Positions 3,692 to 15,715 of a stretch of DNA of 16,271 bases are shown piece by piece. The notes beneath the pieces were generated by a model. That model did no database searches and was not told the origin of the DNA. It worked only from the letters and a program-made list of their open reading frames with translations. The position numbers and the translations under genes were made by a program. The DNA is from Candidatus Fraserbacteria bacterium (GTDB lineage: Bacteria; Bipolaricaulota; Bipolaricaulia; RBG-16-55-9), in the NCBI GenBank assembly GCA_037442925.1, contig JBBIPG010000053.1, positions 1 to 16,271 of the forward strand, in the 5' to 3' direction. How positions within the stretch are numbered: the first letter of the stretch is position 1; each line of letters opens with the position of its first letter.

Positions 3692-4801
3692 CTAGGGTAA
3701 GCGGCCCTCGTTCACGTACCTCGTCAGCTCGCTTACGCTGAGGTTCTCGATGCCCAGCTTGTCTAATGTCCTGCCGCGCCGCCAGTAATCCGTCCGATGA
3801 ATGATGCAGGAGAGATGAATCAAAGCCTCGATCCCGCGCGTGGAGACGCCGTAGCGCTTACCCAACGACGCCATCGGCACTAAGCTCATCGGGACGTCTT
3901 CAAAGATGTAGCGGTGTTCTAGGCGGTTCGGAGCACTGATTCCATAATAGCCGGGGTTGGCATGAACGGCCTCGTAGAGATCTGCTCCACTGGCATCGTA
4001 CGCCATCTTGAGCCATTCCATTGCCGTCATGGCTCGAATCCCCAAGGCCGCGGCAATCGTGACTCGCTCGCGGTCGAGGACCTCCAATACGCGTGCCGTC
4101 GAGGGCGTCACACCATCGATGTAGAATTGAAAATCGCCGCGAGTGGCTTCGATCCAACCGGCGTTGAGAATCGTCAACGCAGGATGGAAGATCGCGCCCA
4201 TGTTGTCCAACCCTGTCTGAAGCACATTTCCCCCATCGACAAACTGTGGATAGGCCTCATGGATGACATCCAGTACGGCTTGTGTGCGTGTGGAGGGCAA
4301 AGCGGCCAGTGGGACAGCATCTTTGATGCTGAAGATGTGGGCTTGGGCTGGACCAGTGGAACGGCTGGCATAGATGAAGGTCTGCGCTTCCGCTACGGTC
4401 ACATTTGCGGCGCCGTTGTGGTCTTTCAGCACTTTTGCGAATTCAATCGCTCCGCACGTCCGCCCTGGGTGCAGAATCACGATCTGACCGTCTCGCAGAT
4501 AAGCAGCGCAAGCCTGGGCGATGTCGCGGTGAGCGGATGAAGGCAGTACGACCATGAGCACATCGGCGAACTGAACTGCCTTTTGGATGTCGGATGTAAC
4601 GAGTGCAAGTTTGCCAAAACCTCGCGGACCACCGGGGTAACTATCCAGTTCGATGCCACGGCGAGCGCGGATGGTCTCGATGTGGGCAGCCGTGCGATTA
4701 TACAGTGCTGTCTCATAGCCCATCAATGCCAGATGGGCAGCCATGGCTTTGCCGCCATGACCTGCCCCCATCACCGTAAATCGAGTCTTCGTCTTTTCCA
4801 T
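3692..4801 (-). CDS. NAD(P)-dependent opine (octopine/nopaline) dehydrogenase family protein
   Basis: Rossmann motif VMGAGHGGKAMAAHL, plus HPGRTCGA, NMGAIFHP, FQFYIDGVTP, LDRERV and HRYIFEDVP.SLVP. The likely start is ATG 4801 after GGAGGTG; the ORF extends to 4849. Confidence 0.9.
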   Translation of the reverse strand: MEKTKTRFTVMGAGHGGKAMAAHLALMGYETALYNRTAAHIETIRARRGIELDSYPGGPRGFGKLALVTSDIQKAVQFADVLMVVLPSSAHRDIAQACAAYLRDGQIVILHPGRTCGAIEFAKVLKDHNGAANVTVAEAQTFIYASRSTGPAQAHIFSIKDAVPLAALPSTRTQAVLDVIHEAYPQFVDGGNVLQTGLDNMGAIFHPALTILNAGWIEATRGDFQFYIDGVTPSTARVLEVLDRERVTIAAALGIRAMTAMEWLKMAYDASGADLYEAVHANPGYYGISAPNRLEHRYIFEDVPMSLVPMASLGKRYGVSTRGIEALIHLSCIIHRTDYWRRGRTLDKLGIENLSVSELTRYVNEGRLP

Positions 4802-4886: not shown

Positions 4887-6380
4887 TTACTTTGCTGCTG
4901 GGCTGGCCGTCCAGCCAAGACAACTCAAGAGGGAATCCGGGAAATACTTCCGCCACATGCGGTAATAGTATAACTCTTCTTTCGAGCGCAGTGTGACGCC
5001 GTGAGGAAGGGTCCGCTCCTCTTCGAATTCGCGATCGGACATCTCGCGTTCCGCTATCTGTTCGAAGACGAGCGCTGATCCGGCTCCGCGGGAGAATTTC
5101 TCTTTCGTACGCCACAGCACTTCCTCAGACAGCATACCCTCAAAGGCCGTTCGTAGCGCCCACTTCTCCACGCCATCCCGCTGCTTGAATTCCAGCGGCA
5201 AGTTGAATGCGATCTTGAGCAAATCGAGATCCAGATAGGGTTCACGCCCTTCCAGGCCATGGGCCATCGTCATGCGATCCACCCGTTGCAGATTGGAGTT
5301 GTGCAGAGCCGTAGTGATGCGTATGAGTTCGCGTGCGCGTTCTGGTTGGCTTAAGTCTTTCAGATAGTGATACCCACCGAAGAGTTCATCCGAACCTTCG
5401 CCTACCAGCACGACTTTCACGTATTCGCTGGCCAGCTGGGCGACAAAGTAATTGGCTATGGCACTGCGCACAAGGGCGAAATCAAACGACTCTAGGTGCC
5501 AAATCACTCTGGGGAGGATTCTTCGCATCTCCTGCTCCGTGAAAACGCGTTCATGATGCTGTGTCCCTAGAGATTCAGCTACAAGACGCGCATATGCCAG
5601 ATCTGAGCTGTCCACCATTCCAACAGAGAAGGAATGCAAACTCTCAACATGGGGACGCATCAGCGCAGCGGCGAGACTGCTATCGAGTCCACCGCTGAGG
5701 AAGACGCCCACGGGCACATCCGCTACCAAGCGTTTCTCCACAGCCCTTCGTAAAGACACTTGCAGCGCGCGTAGGGGATCAGCCGGGACTTCTGATGTAG
5801 TGATCCAGCGTTCCAGGTCGAAATACTTACGGAAACCCTCGCGGCTGTGGAACCAGTGCCCCGCAGGGAACTCGTGGATTCGCGCCCGTAGGGGCAACAG
5901 GGCTTTCATCTCTGAGGCGAAATAGAGGCGACCATCTCGCTCGGCGTAGTAGAGCGGCTTCACCCCCAATGGATCCCGAGCCAACACGAGTTCGTCGCCG
6001 TCGAGAAGCGCGAAGGCAAACATACCGTCAAAACGCTGGACGCACTCCGGGCCCTCGTCTTCATACAGATGCAGCACGACTTCCGTGTCGCTGTGAGTCT
6101 TCAGGTGATGACCCTTAAGAGACTCGCGTAACTCTCGAAAGTTGTAGATTTCGCCGTTATACGCGATCCAGAGTCGGCCGTCCTCATTGGTCATGGGCTG
6201 GTGGCCGTAGGCCACATCGATGATGGAAAGGCGCGTGTGGCCGAGTGCCCCTCTCTTACAGTAGCGAATGTCCCTCTCATCGGGTCCGCGATGACGAATC
6301 TTCCGCAGCAGCCTTTCAATGGGAACTGCGGGTTCGCGGGGTCTCCTCTCCAGTTGAAAACTACCTACCAGGCCACACAT
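4887..6380 (-). CDS. asnB: Asparagine synthetase B family glutamine-dependent amidotransferase
   Basis: N-terminal MCG nucleophile, HRGPD, LGHTRLSIID, NGEIYN, ARDPLGVKPLY, LSGGLDSS, GEGSDELFGGY and DRMTMAHGLE.R.P.LD. Confidence 0.93.
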   Translation of the reverse strand: MCGLVGSFQLERRPREPAVPIERLLRKIRHRGPDERDIRYCKRGALGHTRLSIIDVAYGHQPMTNEDGRLWIAYNGEIYNFRELRESLKGHHLKTHSDTEVVLHLYEDEGPECVQRFDGMFAFALLDGDELVLARDPLGVKPLYYAERDGRLYFASEMKALLPLRARIHEFPAGHWFHSREGFRKYFDLERWITTSEVPADPLRALQVSLRRAVEKRLVADVPVGVFLSGGLDSSLAAALMRPHVESLHSFSVGMVDSSDLAYARLVAESLGTQHHERVFTEQEMRRILPRVIWHLESFDFALVRSAIANYFVAQLASEYVKVVLVGEGSDELFGGYHYLKDLSQPERARELIRITTALHNSNLQRVDRMTMAHGLEGREPYLDLDLLKIAFNLPLEFKQRDGVEKWALRTAFEGMLSEEVLWRTKEKFSRGAGSALVFEQIAEREMSDREFEEERTLPHGVTLRSKEELYYYRMWRKYFPDSLLSCLGWTASPAAK

Positions 6381-6393
6381 AGAGCGTTCCCCT

Positions 6394-8049
6394 CTACTTC
6401 ACTGAGCGACTACGTAACAGAATTGTGCGGAGCCGATCGGCCTCGCTCAGGGGTTTGCCCGTCATTGGATCAACTGCCTGGCATGCTCCGTCAACTATGC
6501 GAGTCATGATCTGACCCTTGGCCAGTGGATGCCCCTTGAGGTGAGGCGCGTCGAGAATGCCCAACCGCACGGCACGTGCCAGAGTCACGGGATCTGCCCA
6601 AGGATCTTTCGCCCTGGGAGCGGCGATCTCTTGAACTGCCGCTAGGGTGACCCTGGCTTCGGAGATGAGCTCGTGTTTGCGTTGCTGTACAACGGGGTCC
6701 GCGGTCATATCCGGTGCACCGCCCAGAGCGTTCTCAATGACCCGCCGGGCGATCTTGCAGCTTTGAATCAGCTCATCTGCGGTGGTGGCGTGATGGGCCT
6801 CTGGGAAACCCACGACGTGCACGATGTGGGGCTTTACAGCCATCTGCAAGTAGACGGAAGCCCCCAGATGCCCCTTCGCAAGATCAGGGTCTACCGGATG
6901 GCTTAACAACCCCGTGCGGGTCTGGCGGTAGATCCGGAAATCCTTGCTGGCTAAGGGCTCAGTCAGCTCGATGCACGCGAGAACCTTCGCAAGATCCATG
7001 CGATCCGAGAGCCCACCGGGGCAGTTGAACATGTACTGCGCGATATAGTCTTCAACACCCATCGCCTTCGCGTTATACGCCGATAGAAAACTGGCCACGA
7101 CGTAGATGACATCCGGAGCATCGCGCATTCCCCAATGGTGAGGCTCGTTCACCTCGACAGGAATGGTGCGCTCTGCGTGCCAGCGCATCAGCTCTTGATG
7201 CACTCGAATCGACTCTTCCAGTCCCAACGGGCCACGACGATCCAATTGGTTGAACCAGAAGAGCGATGTGGCACACCAAGCGTTCTGGATGGTATCGAGG
7301 TAGAGCTGAGCCAGTTTCAGATGATCATCGGTGCCGGAGTAGACGCGCAGGAGTGGGAAGTTACCCCGACGGCTGGCCTGATAGAGTCTTCTGTAGTCTT
7401 CTGCTGAACGAACCGGCACACCGCCTGCCCCTTTGCGCCGCTCATCTTGTCTTTCCGGGTGGAAGAAATTCTCTTGCGCATCTTGATCGATGCCCAACGA
7501 GATGACGTCAATGACCATCGCTTCTGCGATCCTTCGAATGCCTTCTTCCGTCTCTTCGAGAGTGGGGCGGCCGAAATGATGTCGAATGAGTGGGTACGGG
7601 GCTTTCCACTTCAGTCGCTCGACGAACGACTGCGGGTAGTCGCCCTCGTGGGCTTGTTCCAACAGTTGCCCACGCAGGTAGGCCATCACCTCGTCCAGCG
7701 TCTCCTGTCCGGAGAAACAGCGTTCAAAGAATTTCAGAGTCTTAGCGTGGTCAGCCACCGGGGGTGTCCCACCAAACACATAGCGTCGATCTGTTAAGCC
7801 GGCGCGCTTCACAGCCGCGATGAATTGTCGTAAGAGGGCTTCGCCAGTCTCGGGCGTGAGGCGATAACTCACGGCGACGAGTCCAGGGTCATGCTTCGTA
7901 ATGGCTTGCACAAAACTCTCGATGGGCACAGCCGCCCCGAGATAGACGGTCTCCCAACCCACTTCCTGGGCCATCCGCAAGAAACTTGCCACACCTGCCA
8001 CATGAGCATCTTCACCCAGTGCACCCGCGATGACCAAGTGCTTCCGCAT
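6394..8049 (-). CDS. Cobalamin-dependent enzyme: N-terminal B12-binding domain fused to a putative TIM-barrel (glutamate-mutase-like), function unknown
   Basis: Base-off/His-on motif DAHVAG...SYRL...FGG in the first ~130 aa, then a ~410-aa alpha/beta domain. The likely start is ATG 8049 after AGGAGGTG; the ORF track start is 8058. Confidence 0.8.
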   Translation of the reverse strand: MRKHLVIAGALGEDAHVAGVASFLRMAQEVGWETVYLGAAVPIESFVQAITKHDPGLVAVSYRLTPETGEALLRQFIAAVKRAGLTDRRYVFGGTPPVADHAKTLKFFERCFSGQETLDEVMAYLRGQLLEQAHEGDYPQSFVERLKWKAPYPLIRHHFGRPTLEETEEGIRRIAEAMVIDVISLGIDQDAQENFFHPERQDERRKGAGGVPVRSAEDYRRLYQASRRGNFPLLRVYSGTDDHLKLAQLYLDTIQNAWCATSLFWFNQLDRRGPLGLEESIRVHQELMRWHAERTIPVEVNEPHHWGMRDAPDVIYVVASFLSAYNAKAMGVEDYIAQYMFNCPGGLSDRMDLAKVLACIELTEPLASKDFRIYRQTRTGLLSHPVDPDLAKGHLGASVYLQMAVKPHIVHVVGFPEAHHATTADELIQSCKIARRVIENALGGAPDMTADPVVQQRKHELISEARVTLAAVQEIAAPRAKDPWADPVTLARAVRLGILDAPHLKGHPLAKGQIMTRIVDGACQAVDPMTGKPLSEADRLRTILLRSRSVK

Positions 8050-8084: not shown

Positions 8085-8996
8085 CTACCCGTTTGTGGGT
8101 AACGTTGGGTGCATACTGGCGATATCGATGGTGCCTACCACGATGGGGCCGACCTTCAAGGGGACACAGGCGAAGAAACGGATTCCCTTGCGTTGTGCCC
8201 GTTTCATGAAGCGGGGCTCGCCTCCCAGATAGGTCCGGATGATAGGCTCTCCGGTCTGTGCCGCGAGCCCAGGCAATCCTTCTCCCAGCTCATATTCGCG
8301 CTTGTCCTGAATCGGCTCATCATCGAGGCCAACGAACGCTTGTAGTACGAGCTTTCTGCCAGAACGATCGAGGAGGAAGATCTCCCCGAATTGAGCTCCC
8401 GTTCGCTCGAGGACGGTGCATAAGAACTTCTCGTGATCTAAAGCTCGATTCTTCATCCGCCCGAGTGACTGAGTAATGGCTTCCGCCATTTGATCCACGA
8501 CCGTTTGAACAGTGCTCTTTCGCCCGCGGCTAAGAGAACGAGACATGCCGATTCGCTCCTGAGTAGCTGCGAGCACGTTGCACAGAGAGACGCTCAAAAT
8601 GGGCCGTCCGCGCTGCATCGCTTCTTGGAGGGCTTTATCCAAATCGCGGTCGGAATAATAGAGCACAAAGTAGTCTTCGGCGTCCGTCACGAGATACGCG
8701 TGTTCCAGCTCCTGCAAACTGAGCTCATGAGACCGCAGATGTCGTAAGGCCTTCTTGACACTCTGCAAGGGCACATGGGAGTCAATCAGCTGGCGGATGA
8801 GTTCGATGGCAACGAGATCTTCAAAGCTGAAGCGCCTGGCGCTTCCATAGCCCTTCGCGCGTGCTATGCTGGGCGCCATCAGCCCAGAGCGGATCCAAAG
8901 ATCTAATTGTCGATAGGTGATGCGCAACGCTTTGCACACTTCCAGGGACGACCACTCATCCTGCTGTAGTTCCACGGTCTCGGTTGCCGTTGCCAT
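8085..8996 (-). CDS. MerR-family transcriptional regulator (Rv1830/McdR-like) with a C-terminal GAF domain
   Basis: HTH region ITYRQLDLWIRSGLMAPS..A.GYGSARRFSFEDL. GAF-like region GEIFLLD..LVLQAFVG..LGEGLPGLAAQTGEP..FACVPLKVG..VVGTIDIAS. RBS AAGGAG. Confidence 0.87.
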   Translation of the reverse strand: MATATETVELQQDEWSSLEVCKALRITYRQLDLWIRSGLMAPSIARAKGYGSARRFSFEDLVAIELIRQLIDSHVPLQSVKKALRHLRSHELSLQELEHAYLVTDAEDYFVLYYSDRDLDKALQEAMQRGRPILSVSLCNVLAATQERIGMSRSLSRGRKSTVQTVVDQMAEAITQSLGRMKNRALDHEKFLCTVLERTGAQFGEIFLLDRSGRKLVLQAFVGLDDEPIQDKREYELGEGLPGLAAQTGEPIIRTYLGGEPRFMKRAQRKGIRFFACVPLKVGPIVVGTIDIASMHPTLPTNG

Positions 8997-9023: not shown

Positions 9024-9044
9024 TAATTACTTGCCATGTAATTA
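9024..9044. promoter_or_regulatory. Palindromic operator overlapping the -10 element and predicted start site
   Basis: TAATTAC-ttgccat-GTAATTA, a perfect 7-bp inverted repeat. Confidence 0.75.
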
Positions 9045-9069
9045 TAACACGGTGCCTCCTGCTCGTCAA
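9041..9069 (-). promoter_or_regulatory. Sigma70-type promoter of the regulator-B12 enzyme-asnB-opine dehydrogenase operon
   Basis: Minus strand TTGACG (9069-9064), 17 bp spacer, TATAAT (9046-9041). Confidence 0.85.
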
Positions 9070-13832: not shown

Positions 13833-13908
13833 GCCGGCGTAGCTCAGCTGGTAGAGCAGCCGCTTCGTAAGCGGCAGGTCGTCGGTTCGATCCCGACCGC
13901 CGGCTCCA
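13833..13908 (+). tRNA. tRNA-Thr (anticodon CGT)
   Basis: 76-nt cloverleaf: acceptor GCCGGCG/CGCCGGC, D arm GCTC/GAGC, anticodon arm GCCGC-TTCGTAA-GCGGC, T arm GTCGG-TTCGATC-CCGAC, and an encoded CCA. Confidence 0.98.
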
Positions 13909-13950
13909 GAAGCACTAAAAAGCTCTTCCATTCAGCGAAAAACTCAGCTG

Positions 13951-14451
13951 GTGCGCCGTAACTCCCCAACTGTGAAACTGGCGCAAAATGACCCTAGGCG
14001 GCCGCACTACACGGAGTCTACCCTCACCTTAAAGCTTCGAGGTTATTTCTCATCTCTTATCGAGCGCAACTATCGGATGGCCAGTGTAGGAATGCATTAT
14101 CGCGTCTGGCACGCCTTCTTTGTCTGGGTCGTCCGTGAGGGCTTGATAAAGCACGATCCCTTAGACGGCATCTTAGACTGCGGGCTTAGGCTCAATGAGC
14201 TGATCCGGCTTCGGCTTGCAGACGTGTCACTGGCTCAACGCTCGCTCAAAGTGCACGGCAAAGGGGCTAAAGATCGGATCGTCTTCATGGGAGCCAGGAC
14301 GACTAAGGCTCTCCGGCGGTACCTCGAAATACGAGGCTTTAAGCCCGGCTATTCCGACACACTCTTCATCGACCGAAAGGGAGAGTCATTGAAATCCCGC
14401 TGGGTGCCAGAGGTCGTAGCCCGCTTGGGCAAGAAAGCGGGTCTGAAAATC
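13951..14451 (+). pseudogene. Tyrosine recombinase/integrase remnant (XerC/D-like) with internal and C-terminal deletions
   Basis: AFFVW..REGLI..DP, LDCGLRLNELIRL.L.DV and VHGKGAKDRIVF are present. The linker before box I and the HxxR/Tyr region are absent. Confidence 0.85.
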
Positions 14452-14472
14452 CGGAATCGAGGCGAGAACTGT

Positions 14473-14870
14473 CGTCTGGTATGCCATGTGGATGCCAGCT
14501 TCACAGCGCCTACATACATACGCGTTCCGTGTGGCGCTAGGCGGACGCCAGATCACTCAGGATTCTGGCGTGATCCCTCTTGCCAGGATTCGGTTCGATG
14601 GTCATGGAATATCATGCCTTGATTAGACTTCTTGAACACTTGATTGCCCACCAGTGGACCGATCGCCCGGTCACGATCCGCATGGACTGCAAACATGTTG
14701 TAGATCAACTCAACGACATCATGAGGGTCAAGAGCCCAGACCTGAAGCCGCTCTACACGAAGGCCAGGGTGCTTATGGGAGCGTTCGAGAATCTAGTCCT
14801 GGAGTGGATACCCAGAGAGAAGAACGGTGAGGCCCATCGTGGAGCGGGCAAGAAGACACCCGATATCTGA
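14473..14870 (+). pseudogene. Ribonuclease HI-like gene with two frameshifts
   Basis: Frame 1 LVCHVDAS, frame 2 TYAFRVALGGRQITQDSGVI, frame 3 EYHALI..L..IRMDCKHVVDQL..RVKSPDLKPLY.KA..L..F..LEWIPREKNGEAH. Confidence 0.75.
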
Positions 14871-14907
14871 TCCCCAAGGACAGTTCACCCCGATGAATGG
14901 GGACCCC

Positions 14908-14957
14908 TTGCATCAGGGCCATCGTAGTCTTATAATATGACTATCACAATGGTCATA
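14908..14957 (+). promoter_or_regulatory. Toxin-antitoxin promoter with operator palindrome
   Basis: TTGCAT (14908-14913), 17 bp spacer, TATAAT (14931-14936). The inverted repeat TATGACTAT-caca-ATGGTCATA (14936-14957) covers the predicted start site. Confidence 0.75.
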
Positions 14958-14966
14958 GGAGGCTCG

Positions 14967-15242
14967 ATGGAGAGCAAACGAGTGTCGGTCGCGGAAGGGA
15001 AAAAGGATTTCACGCAGCTGTTGCGAGAAGCACGTGAAAAGCAGATGCCCATCTTAGTTTTCAACGAACGTTTAGATGAGTTGGCTGGAGCTATCCTCTC
15101 GCCTGAAGAATACGAGAGATATGAGCTACTGCATGCCTACTTCGAGGCCCTACGGCTCTCGCAAAAGTTCGCAGATATCAAGCTCGATCTCCCTGAATTG
15201 GTCCGTCAGGCTCGTCAGGAACTCGAGGAGCGCACTGCATGA
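14967..15242 (+). CDS. Phd/YefM-family antitoxin
   Basis: RVSVAEGKKDFTQLLREA..PILV..AGAILSPEEYERY. AGGAGG precedes ATG 14967, and there is an ATGA overlap with the toxin. Confidence 0.85.
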   Translation: MESKRVSVAEGKKDFTQLLREAREKQMPILVFNERLDELAGAILSPEEYERYELLHAYFEALRLSQKFADIKLDLPELVRQARQELEERTA

Positions 15243-15715
15243 CCTCCCAAAGCAAAGCCAGGTCAGTGGTCATCGACGCCAGTGTCTTGCTGGCATTCTA
15301 TCTACCTGCAGAACCCTATAAAGCTCAGGCGCTGGAGTTCTTGGGAGAAGCGGTGGCAGGTCGGGTGAAACTCATCGTGCCTACCTTGACACGATACGAG
15401 GCACTCAACGTTCTTTCTCGGGTTACTCGTGGTCTCAAAAGGGGCCAGAAGCTCTCGCTTGAGGACGCTCAGGAGATCCTCACCGCGATTGATGGTCTCA
15501 AGCTAGAGGAACGAACTGTGAAAGGCTTGGATAAGCAAATCCTCAAGGTCGCCCATGAGAATCAATGTACGGCTTATGATGCAGCGTATCTGGCATTGGC
15601 AGCGAAGTTGAGTGCCGATCTACTCACAGGCGATGAGCGCTTTCATAACAACCTCGGGCCAAGATTCAAGCACATAAAGTTTCTGGGTGATATCGATGTG
15701 CGGAGGAGTGATTGA
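15239..15715 (+). CDS. vapC: PIN-domain toxin (VapC family)
   Basis: VVIDASVLL, VPTL.RYE..N, TAYDAAYLALA and LLTGDERF; the acidic PIN residues are intact. Confidence 0.92.
   Translation: MTSQSKARSVVIDASVLLAFYLPAEPYKAQALEFLGEAVAGRVKLIVPTLTRYEALNVLSRVTRGLKRGQKLSLEDAQEILTAIDGLKLEERTVKGLDKQILKVAHENQCTAYDAAYLALAAKLSADLLTGDERFHNNLGPRFKHIKFLGDIDVRRSD

Follow-up and report, generated by a model that had tools for sequence, protein, structure and literature searches.

The candidate mutase locus and its neighboring genes

The window, meaning the whole 16,271-nt stretch of DNA analyzed here, carries four genes on the same strand that encode, in order, a MerR-GAF regulator, a candidate B12 mutase, an AsnB-type amidotransferase, and an opine dehydrogenase. 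The mutase gene (6394..8049, minus strand), read from 8049 to 6394 and preceded by AGGAGG 8 nt ahead of its ATG, is a genuine ORF of 551 aa; domain and fold evidence indicated a B12-binding domain fused to a barrel resembling that of GlmE. The regulator (8085..8996, minus strand), with MerR-HTH and GAF domains, is the first gene of the likely operon, and it stops right behind its GAF match and may be truncated. No MerR-GAF gene was found beside related mutases in the GTDB loci (0/80) or the metagenome loci (0/80), and the phylum loci lacked one, the window's own excepted. A promoter-like TTGACG-17-TATAAT sequence (9041..9069, minus strand; 11/12 match) upstream of the four genes is a consensus match only, the number of such sites found (two) not being above the mean of 2.9 in shuffles.

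The AsnB gene (4887..6380, minus strand), located 13 nt downstream of the mutase, encodes a protein with an intact Cys1 that scored 559 bits against NF006949 (cut-off, 499). It is an accessory member of the locus, present in 17/80 GTDB loci and 0/80 metagenome loci. Beta-lactam synthetase has Tyr at the GEGxDE site; this identity was rejected for AsnB because 15 aligned AsnB proteins keep the asparagine synthetase GEGxDE motif and score far better against asparagine synthetase. The N-terminal Cys is missing in 7 of these 15 linked proteins (L012, L020, L024, L050, L005, L067, and L101), and locus L020 has tandem AsnB copies, one with and one without it. The opine dehydrogenase (PF02317; 3692..4849, minus strand), with a likely start near 4801, has Arg and Gly at the positions equivalent to Arthrobacter 111 and 198 and Arg at 35. 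No Rfam riboswitch was detected in the window, and no plasmid match was found. Elsewhere in the window, an SLC13-type transporter gene (1855-2568) abutting mscS is cut to 237 aa, compared with ~587 in relatives, and an IS5-type transposase in two frames (732-1531) lies upstream. A further region (13833-15715) is likely a mobile-element remnant: behind a tRNA it carries part of an integrase, an RNase-H-like ORF, and a toxin-antitoxin pair of the Phd/PIN type.

A B12-binding domain and a predicted glutamate-mutase-like barrel

Residues 1-130 of the mutase (7660..8049, minus strand) form a B12-binding Rossmann domain, as indicated by a PF02310 match (residues 6-106; E 1.8e-12) and by the resemblance of its fold to those of GlmS and corrinoid proteins, while the rest of the protein was left unnamed in Pfam and NCBIfam scans. 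Conservation was assessed in 161 near-full-length family rows from fetched loci, in which two clades dominate and two rows are loci fetched twice, and in a second set of 44 diverse family rows. The DxHxxG..SxxL..GG signature that the sequence-only reading had placed at the N-terminus is there (D14-A-H16-V-A-G19, S61-Y-R-L64, and G93-G94); its Asp, however, is a minority state, found in 6/161 rows compared with Cys in 153/161, so that CxHxxG is the usual motif of the family. His16 (codon 8002-8004, minus strand), the predicted lower cobalt ligand, is His in 159/161 rows, with gaps in the other 2. The same reading had reported neither a CxxxCxxC radical-SAM motif nor the Lys that follows the His motif in PLP-dependent aminomutases, and both absences were upheld: the former motif does not occur in the mutase, by which a B12-dependent radical SAM enzyme was rejected, and no Lys is conserved at positions 17-35, where it occurs in at most 17/161 family rows at any position.

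Residues 134-542 (6424..7650, minus strand) are predicted to form an epsilon-type TIM barrel with a helical tail. PDB sequence and profile searches with the mutase matched the B12 domain alone and never GlmE, so fold and profile-profile comparisons were needed. With an AlphaFold2 model built from 31 sequences (mean pLDDT, 85), the best Foldseek match was GlmE (1cb7_B; E 4.1e-14), followed by ornithine and lysine aminomutases. In VIA-align, run against 48,161 chains, the model aligned with 1cb7_B at Z 32.8 (rmsd, 3.1; 362 residues; 17% identity), compared with 29.4 for lysine aminomutase, 27.1 for ornithine aminomutase; acyl-CoA mutases reached 16-20 and the barrels of methyltransferases about 15, and neither diol dehydratase nor ethanolamine ammonia-lyase appeared in either match list. 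A profile-profile comparison of the 44-sequence family profile with 8 GlmE-like sequences gave a probability of 98.1% (E 8e-14; 365 columns), against 0.2% for a reversed alignment and at most 7.7% for 20 block shuffles. In a quick tree, a long, fully supported branch parted 23 family rows from the 8 GlmE-like rows. PF06368, an annotation carried by many relatives, did not match the mutase, and TIGR01503 (the GlmE family) had no match in the mutase's own genome.

Five segments that had been picked out by eye (PLIRHHFG, SLGIDQ, GGVPV, PLLRVYSGTDD, and VEVNEPHHWG) aligned in order with GlmE beta1, beta2, the NGFP loop, beta3, and beta5. These comparisons agree with the fused sigma+epsilon architecture proposed on their basis, and the structural check suggested alongside it, which set glutamate mutase against methyltransferase structures, came out on the side of glutamate mutase. 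The barrel is thus predicted to have a GlmE-type fold. The N-terminal B12 domain also confirmed that the domain order is opposite to that of methylmalonyl-CoA mutase; an acyl-CoA mutase (MCM, ICM) was rejected given this reversed order, the lack of an MCM Pfam match, and Z scores below that of GlmE. A PLP/B12 aminomutase (LAM, OAM) was likewise rejected, as the PLP Lys is missing and the NCBIfam scores (21 and 13 bits) stay below the respective cut-offs (280 and 800).

Active site and form of the cofactor

GlmE numbering was transferred via a genomic GlmE aligned to 1cb7_B. The adenosine in glutamate mutase is described as held by the carbonyls of G68 and N123 (PMC10947579), and Glu330 of GlmE contacts the adenosyl ribose, as the corresponding residues do in further B12 radical enzymes (PMC4413051). 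G160 of the mutase aligns to G68 and is conserved in 161/161 rows; Glu417 (6799..6801, minus strand), which corresponds to Glu330 by alignment and is a predicted adenosyl-ribose contact, is conserved in 161/161 rows and in 43/44 diverse rows. The substrate in glutamate mutase is described as held by R66, R149, and E171 at its glycyl half, with E171 binding the free glycyl amine, and by R100 and Y177 at its acrylate half (PMC10947579). The substrate-binding Arg pattern had already appeared changed by eye, and indeed R66, R100, R149, and E171 are all replaced, by H158, Q192, Y237, and C259 or A260, respectively, the beta4 register being uncertain by one residue for the E171 and Y177 equivalents. 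No acidic residue that might stand in for E171 occurs at 257-261 in the family alignment.

New invariant residues alternate on the strands (R156/H158, R235/Y237, E299/N301, and Q338/M340) and are accompanied by R378 and H411. The arginines among them, R156 (7582-7584), R235 (7345-7347), and R378 (6916-6918), span 6916..7584 on the minus strand and occur in 161/161 rows each; in the diverse set, R156 is kept in 44/44, R235 in 36/44 (with Lys in 7 more), and R378 in 42/44. R156 and R235 sit two residues ahead of GlmE R66 (beta1) and R149 (beta3), a shift along the strand that would, from the alignment register, place them one barrel layer deeper, and the new arginines likely represent a carboxylate claw relocated deeper in the barrel. 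The metal site that had been suggested from added His pairs did not find support, because they are not kept as pairs across the 44 diverse members (H157 in 23, H158 in 42, H304 in 35, H305 in 27, H419 in 10, and H420 in 27); H158, H411, and E299 could be alternative candidate metal ligands. Among Chloroflexota, GlmE-like proteins (L209, L210, L211, L212, and L215) keep E330 and have R149 and/or E171 replaced, which suggests further orphan mutases.

A barrel-length match to the mutase at E < 1e-60 was obtained in 19/151 phylum genomes. Four fetched relatives from the phylum are 1218-1234 aa long, fusing the B12 domain and barrel to GlmL (L096:6906-10598, L097:8412-12116, L098:7538-11215, and L099:6876-10532), and each is followed by a cobO-like gene. 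In the one long relative that was scanned, GlmL makes up the C-terminal half (PF13941; E 1e-85), and a PF02572 corrinoid adenosyltransferase is encoded by the gene that follows; the GlmL fusion was also found in three sequence-library proteins. Since these relatives are fused to GlmL beside an adenosyltransferase, they point to adenosylcobalamin radical chemistry, and the mutase is very probably an adenosylcobalamin radical enzyme. The clusters of the GlmL-fused forms contain GntR, a D-glutamate-cyclase-like gene, and peptide ABC transporters (by Pfam in L096 and in selected genes elsewhere). As had been stated earlier, no GlmL/MeaB-type chaperone is encoded in the window (19 ORFs scanned); GlmL and CobA were not found in the mutase's genome (94% complete), which carries a PduO-type adenosyltransferase, MeaB, and a methylmalonyl-CoA-mutase-like gene pair.

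Going by database labels, among them 'methionine synthase', the protein would be a corrinoid methyltransferase or would bind B12 without catalysis, and its N-terminal domain does score best, if weakly, against corrinoid proteins. These matches cover residues 1-130 only and fall far below the cut-off, and no cap-domain match was obtained; with a barrel much closer to GlmE (Z 33) than to methyltransferases (Z 15), the invariance of E417, and the presence of GlmL and adenosyltransferase in relatives, such a role seems very improbable. It is scarcely credible, either, that the protein is an ordinary glutamate mutase that is merely fused, a candidate rejected because the four substrate residues are lost even though the adenosyl-site equivalents of G68 and E330 are kept. 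Glutamate mutase is indeed the closest fold, relatives are fused to GlmL, and glutamate is accepted by the partner dehydrogenase; however, TIGR01503 is unmatched in the genome, the branch from GlmE is long, no methylaspartate ammonia-lyase was found in the mutase's genome, and true GlmE and the mutase family occur together in four genomes. The mutase is therefore an uncharacterized relative of the glutamate mutase kind, distinct from glutamate mutase.

The opine dehydrogenase partner and the proposed reaction

The closest named relatives of the mutase are from Bipolaricaulota (74-77% identity), and the family has a wide distribution: 7,945/7,999 scored candidate proteins passed as members, at least 590 GTDB stretches were confirmed, and Anaerolinea thermophila and Bellilinea caldifistulae are among its cultured carriers. 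Zhang et al. 2009 (PMC2667541) predicted a B12 family in Chloroflexi and Firmicutes with an N-terminal B12 domain, an octopine/nopaline dehydrogenase always adjoining, and asparagine synthase nearby, and called for experiments; their section on this family gives no glutamate mutase link, substrate, or test. The mutase locus has the same N-terminal B12 domain, adjacent PF02317 dehydrogenase, and asparagine synthase, and judged from domain and neighbors, the two families are almost certainly one. One member (P0128; 863 aa) is fused at its C-terminus to an ATP-grasp domain (glutathione synthetase/RimK-like), which recalls the ligase neighbor of 2009. Our literature searches, with most subscription journals outside their coverage, found no assay of the family, and no description of a B12 rearrangement of a pyruvate-Asp/Glu conjugate was found in the literature searched.

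An opine dehydrogenase adjoins the mutase in 78/80 GTDB loci (the best 80 of at least 590), both misses being contig ends, and in 58/80 loci of a distant metagenome clade, where 18 of the 22 misses are contigs that stop within the mutase or shortly behind it and the other 4 offer downstream room yet lack the dehydrogenase. PF02317 is on the mutase contig in 18/19 phylum genomes, in one as a remnant. At L097:8044-8343, all that is left of the NAD(P) opine dehydrogenase is a 99-aa remnant with an internal deletion; the multi-subunit flavin/Fe-S dehydrogenase downstream (L097:12993-16371), which we take to resemble opine oxidase or proline dehydrogenase, possibly replaces it in this one case.

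In opine dehydrogenases, Arg111 and Gly198 were reported to switch specificity to Asp/Glu by mutagenesis, pyruvate is the preferred keto acid, Arg35 indicates NADPH, and the new stereocenter of the opine is R (Telek et al. 2024, PMC10787698). R111 is present in 89/90 and G198 in 90/90 rows of mutase-linked dehydrogenases, and the pair in 54/54 of a second set; both are kept even at about 25% identity. Only 1/16 dehydrogenases from other contexts has the pair, and this exception falls inside the mutase-linked clade, at a locus without a mutase. Mutase and dehydrogenase distances correlate at 0.79, which was not taken as evidence because kin share both genes. A split form of the family, sought near dehydrogenases with stand-alone B12 domains, was rejected, since these loci are operons for corrinoid methyltransferases in which nothing matched the barrel. 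Six genomes (L195-L200) have a recurring operon, labeled by eye, in which a hydantoinase-like pair is joined by an opine dehydrogenase of another clade, a carbamoyltransferase-like gene, a gene for a corrinoid protein, and methyltransferase-like genes. Opine dehydrogenases with an N-terminal extension occur at L102:2243-3853, L104:4163-5740, and L108:2317-3897; the extension is a PTS EIIA domain in the single case scanned, and a cobO-like gene is found nearby in L104 and L108.

Because the mutase nearly always has as its neighbor an opine dehydrogenase whose signature points to acidic amino acids, its substrate is likely a pyruvate-Asp/Glu conjugate, and we tentatively favor, with somewhat less than even confidence, a rearrangement of such an opine, N-(1-carboxyethyl)-Glu or -Asp. 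The neighboring dehydrogenase would make the opine from pyruvate, Asp/Glu, and NADPH; His16 would bind cobalt base-off, E417 and G160 would hold the adenosyl group for Co-C homolysis, and R156 and R235, one layer deeper, would together with R378 bind up to three carboxylates, the loss of E171 leaving room for the N-substituent. With the free-amine Glu lost and at least three arginines, partly deeper, the pocket would fit a tricarboxylic secondary amine, which is the product of the partner. The best-precedented reaction would convert the glutamate opine to a 3-methylaspartate opine by glutamate-mutase-like fragmentation and recombination, and AsnB, where present, might amidate the product. Counting against this proposal, the closest assayed dehydrogenases prefer Asp to Glu (mODH-45 and -47 conversion: Asp, 97% and 94%; Glu, 35% and 57%; PMC10787698), and an Asp opine is unable to undergo glutamate-mutase chemistry on its Asp half. 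The four metagenome loci with room yet without a dehydrogenase, the L097 remnant, the missing GlmL in a 94%-complete genome, and the Cys that replaces the Asp of the His-on motif in most members also weigh against it.

The B12 enzyme could instead be the first to act and rearrange the carbon skeleton of a free acidic amino acid that is not glutamate (e.g., a longer homologue), its product then being condensed or oxidized by the dehydrogenase. The fold and adenosyl evidence apply equally here, a longer free amino acid also suits a deeper claw, and assayed dehydrogenases accept 2-aminopimelate and homocysteate (PMC10787698). We nevertheless consider this order of events unlikely, as no acid at 257-261 replaces E171, although invariant E299 could stand in, and as three or more invariant arginines are better suited to three carboxylates.

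A nitrogen rather than a carbon fragment might also migrate: in a PLP-free aminomutase, pyruvate would replace PLP, and a 1,2 nitrogen shift on the pyruvate imine or opine would yield a beta-amino acid (for example, beta-glutamate or a beta-alanyl opine). After GlmE, the nearest folds are those of the PLP aminomutases (Z 29.4 and 27.1), and the PLP Lys is missing, yet an imine-forming enzyme nearly always adjoins. As a matter of general chemistry, however, free ketimines are rapidly hydrolyzed, and it is costly to shift nitrogen by a radical route on a saturated amine; moreover, GlmE is closer in fold than the aminomutases, and the sole dehydrogenase-mutase read-through (P0146) is a fragment, all of which leaves this chemistry rather improbable. 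Its product would match a compatible solute, in keeping with weak c-di-AMP links, and an osmolyte or compatible-solute role is a weak guess: a c-di-AMP riboswitch was detected in 1/46 loci scanned (L032:418-560; 98.8 bits), where the mutase and dehydrogenase genes follow directly downstream, a GntR-TrkA-C regulator was found in 5/80 loci, and transport genes are scattered in the loci.

Catabolism would be served by a radical eliminase, not an isomerase, that cuts the opine C-N bond and releases, e.g., D-alanine. The gene clusters around the GlmL-fused clade look catabolic (they include a D-glutamate-cyclase-like gene, an enolase-family epimerase, a C45 hydrolase, and a transporter of the peptide ABC type), a D-Ala-D-Ala ligase was reported nearby in 2009 (PMC2667541), and the new center of the opine is R (PMC10787698). 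We regard this as quite improbable, since mutases are the top fold matches, with neither diol dehydratase nor ethanolamine ammonia-lyase in the two lists, and since Arg35 suggests NADPH and the synthetic direction.

Known adenosylcobalamin reactions are few, about a dozen. If true, an opine mutase would mean a further kind of radical rearrangement and a new pathway of metabolites in common anaerobes, and a PLP-free aminomutase, if that were true, an unrecognized route to beta-amino-acid solutes (e.g., beta-glutamate) in anaerobes of several phyla. Because close relatives of the dehydrogenase have already been shown to make Asp/Glu-pyruvate opines, a short list of candidate substrates can be made enzymatically and screened, so that an orphan family predicted in 2009 is now open to direct experiment.

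Among known systems, mODH-45, -47, -48, -49, -55, and -582 each share 9/10 tabulated active-site residues with the window dehydrogenase, including R111/G198; they were assayed as biocatalysts, in a report whose main text does not use the term 'genomic context' (PMC10787698). Glutamate mutase GlmS/GlmE/GlmL (Clostridium cochlearium; PDB 1CB7, 6H9E) resembles the mutase in its His-on B12 domain and epsilon-type barrel with tail; its G68 and E330 have equivalents in the mutase family, and GlmL is fused in some members. The family differs in being one chain, in usually having CxH for DxH, in its opine dehydrogenase partner, and in its new arginines, the Arg claw and E171 having been replaced (H158, Q192, Y237, and C259/A260). 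Lysine 5,6- and ornithine 4,5-aminomutases (PDB 8T0V, 1XRS, 3KOW) have a barrel related to that of the mutase, with the adenosyl Glu conserved in both, whereas the mutase has no PLP-anchoring Lys in its B12 domain and carries this domain at the N-terminus, fused to the barrel.
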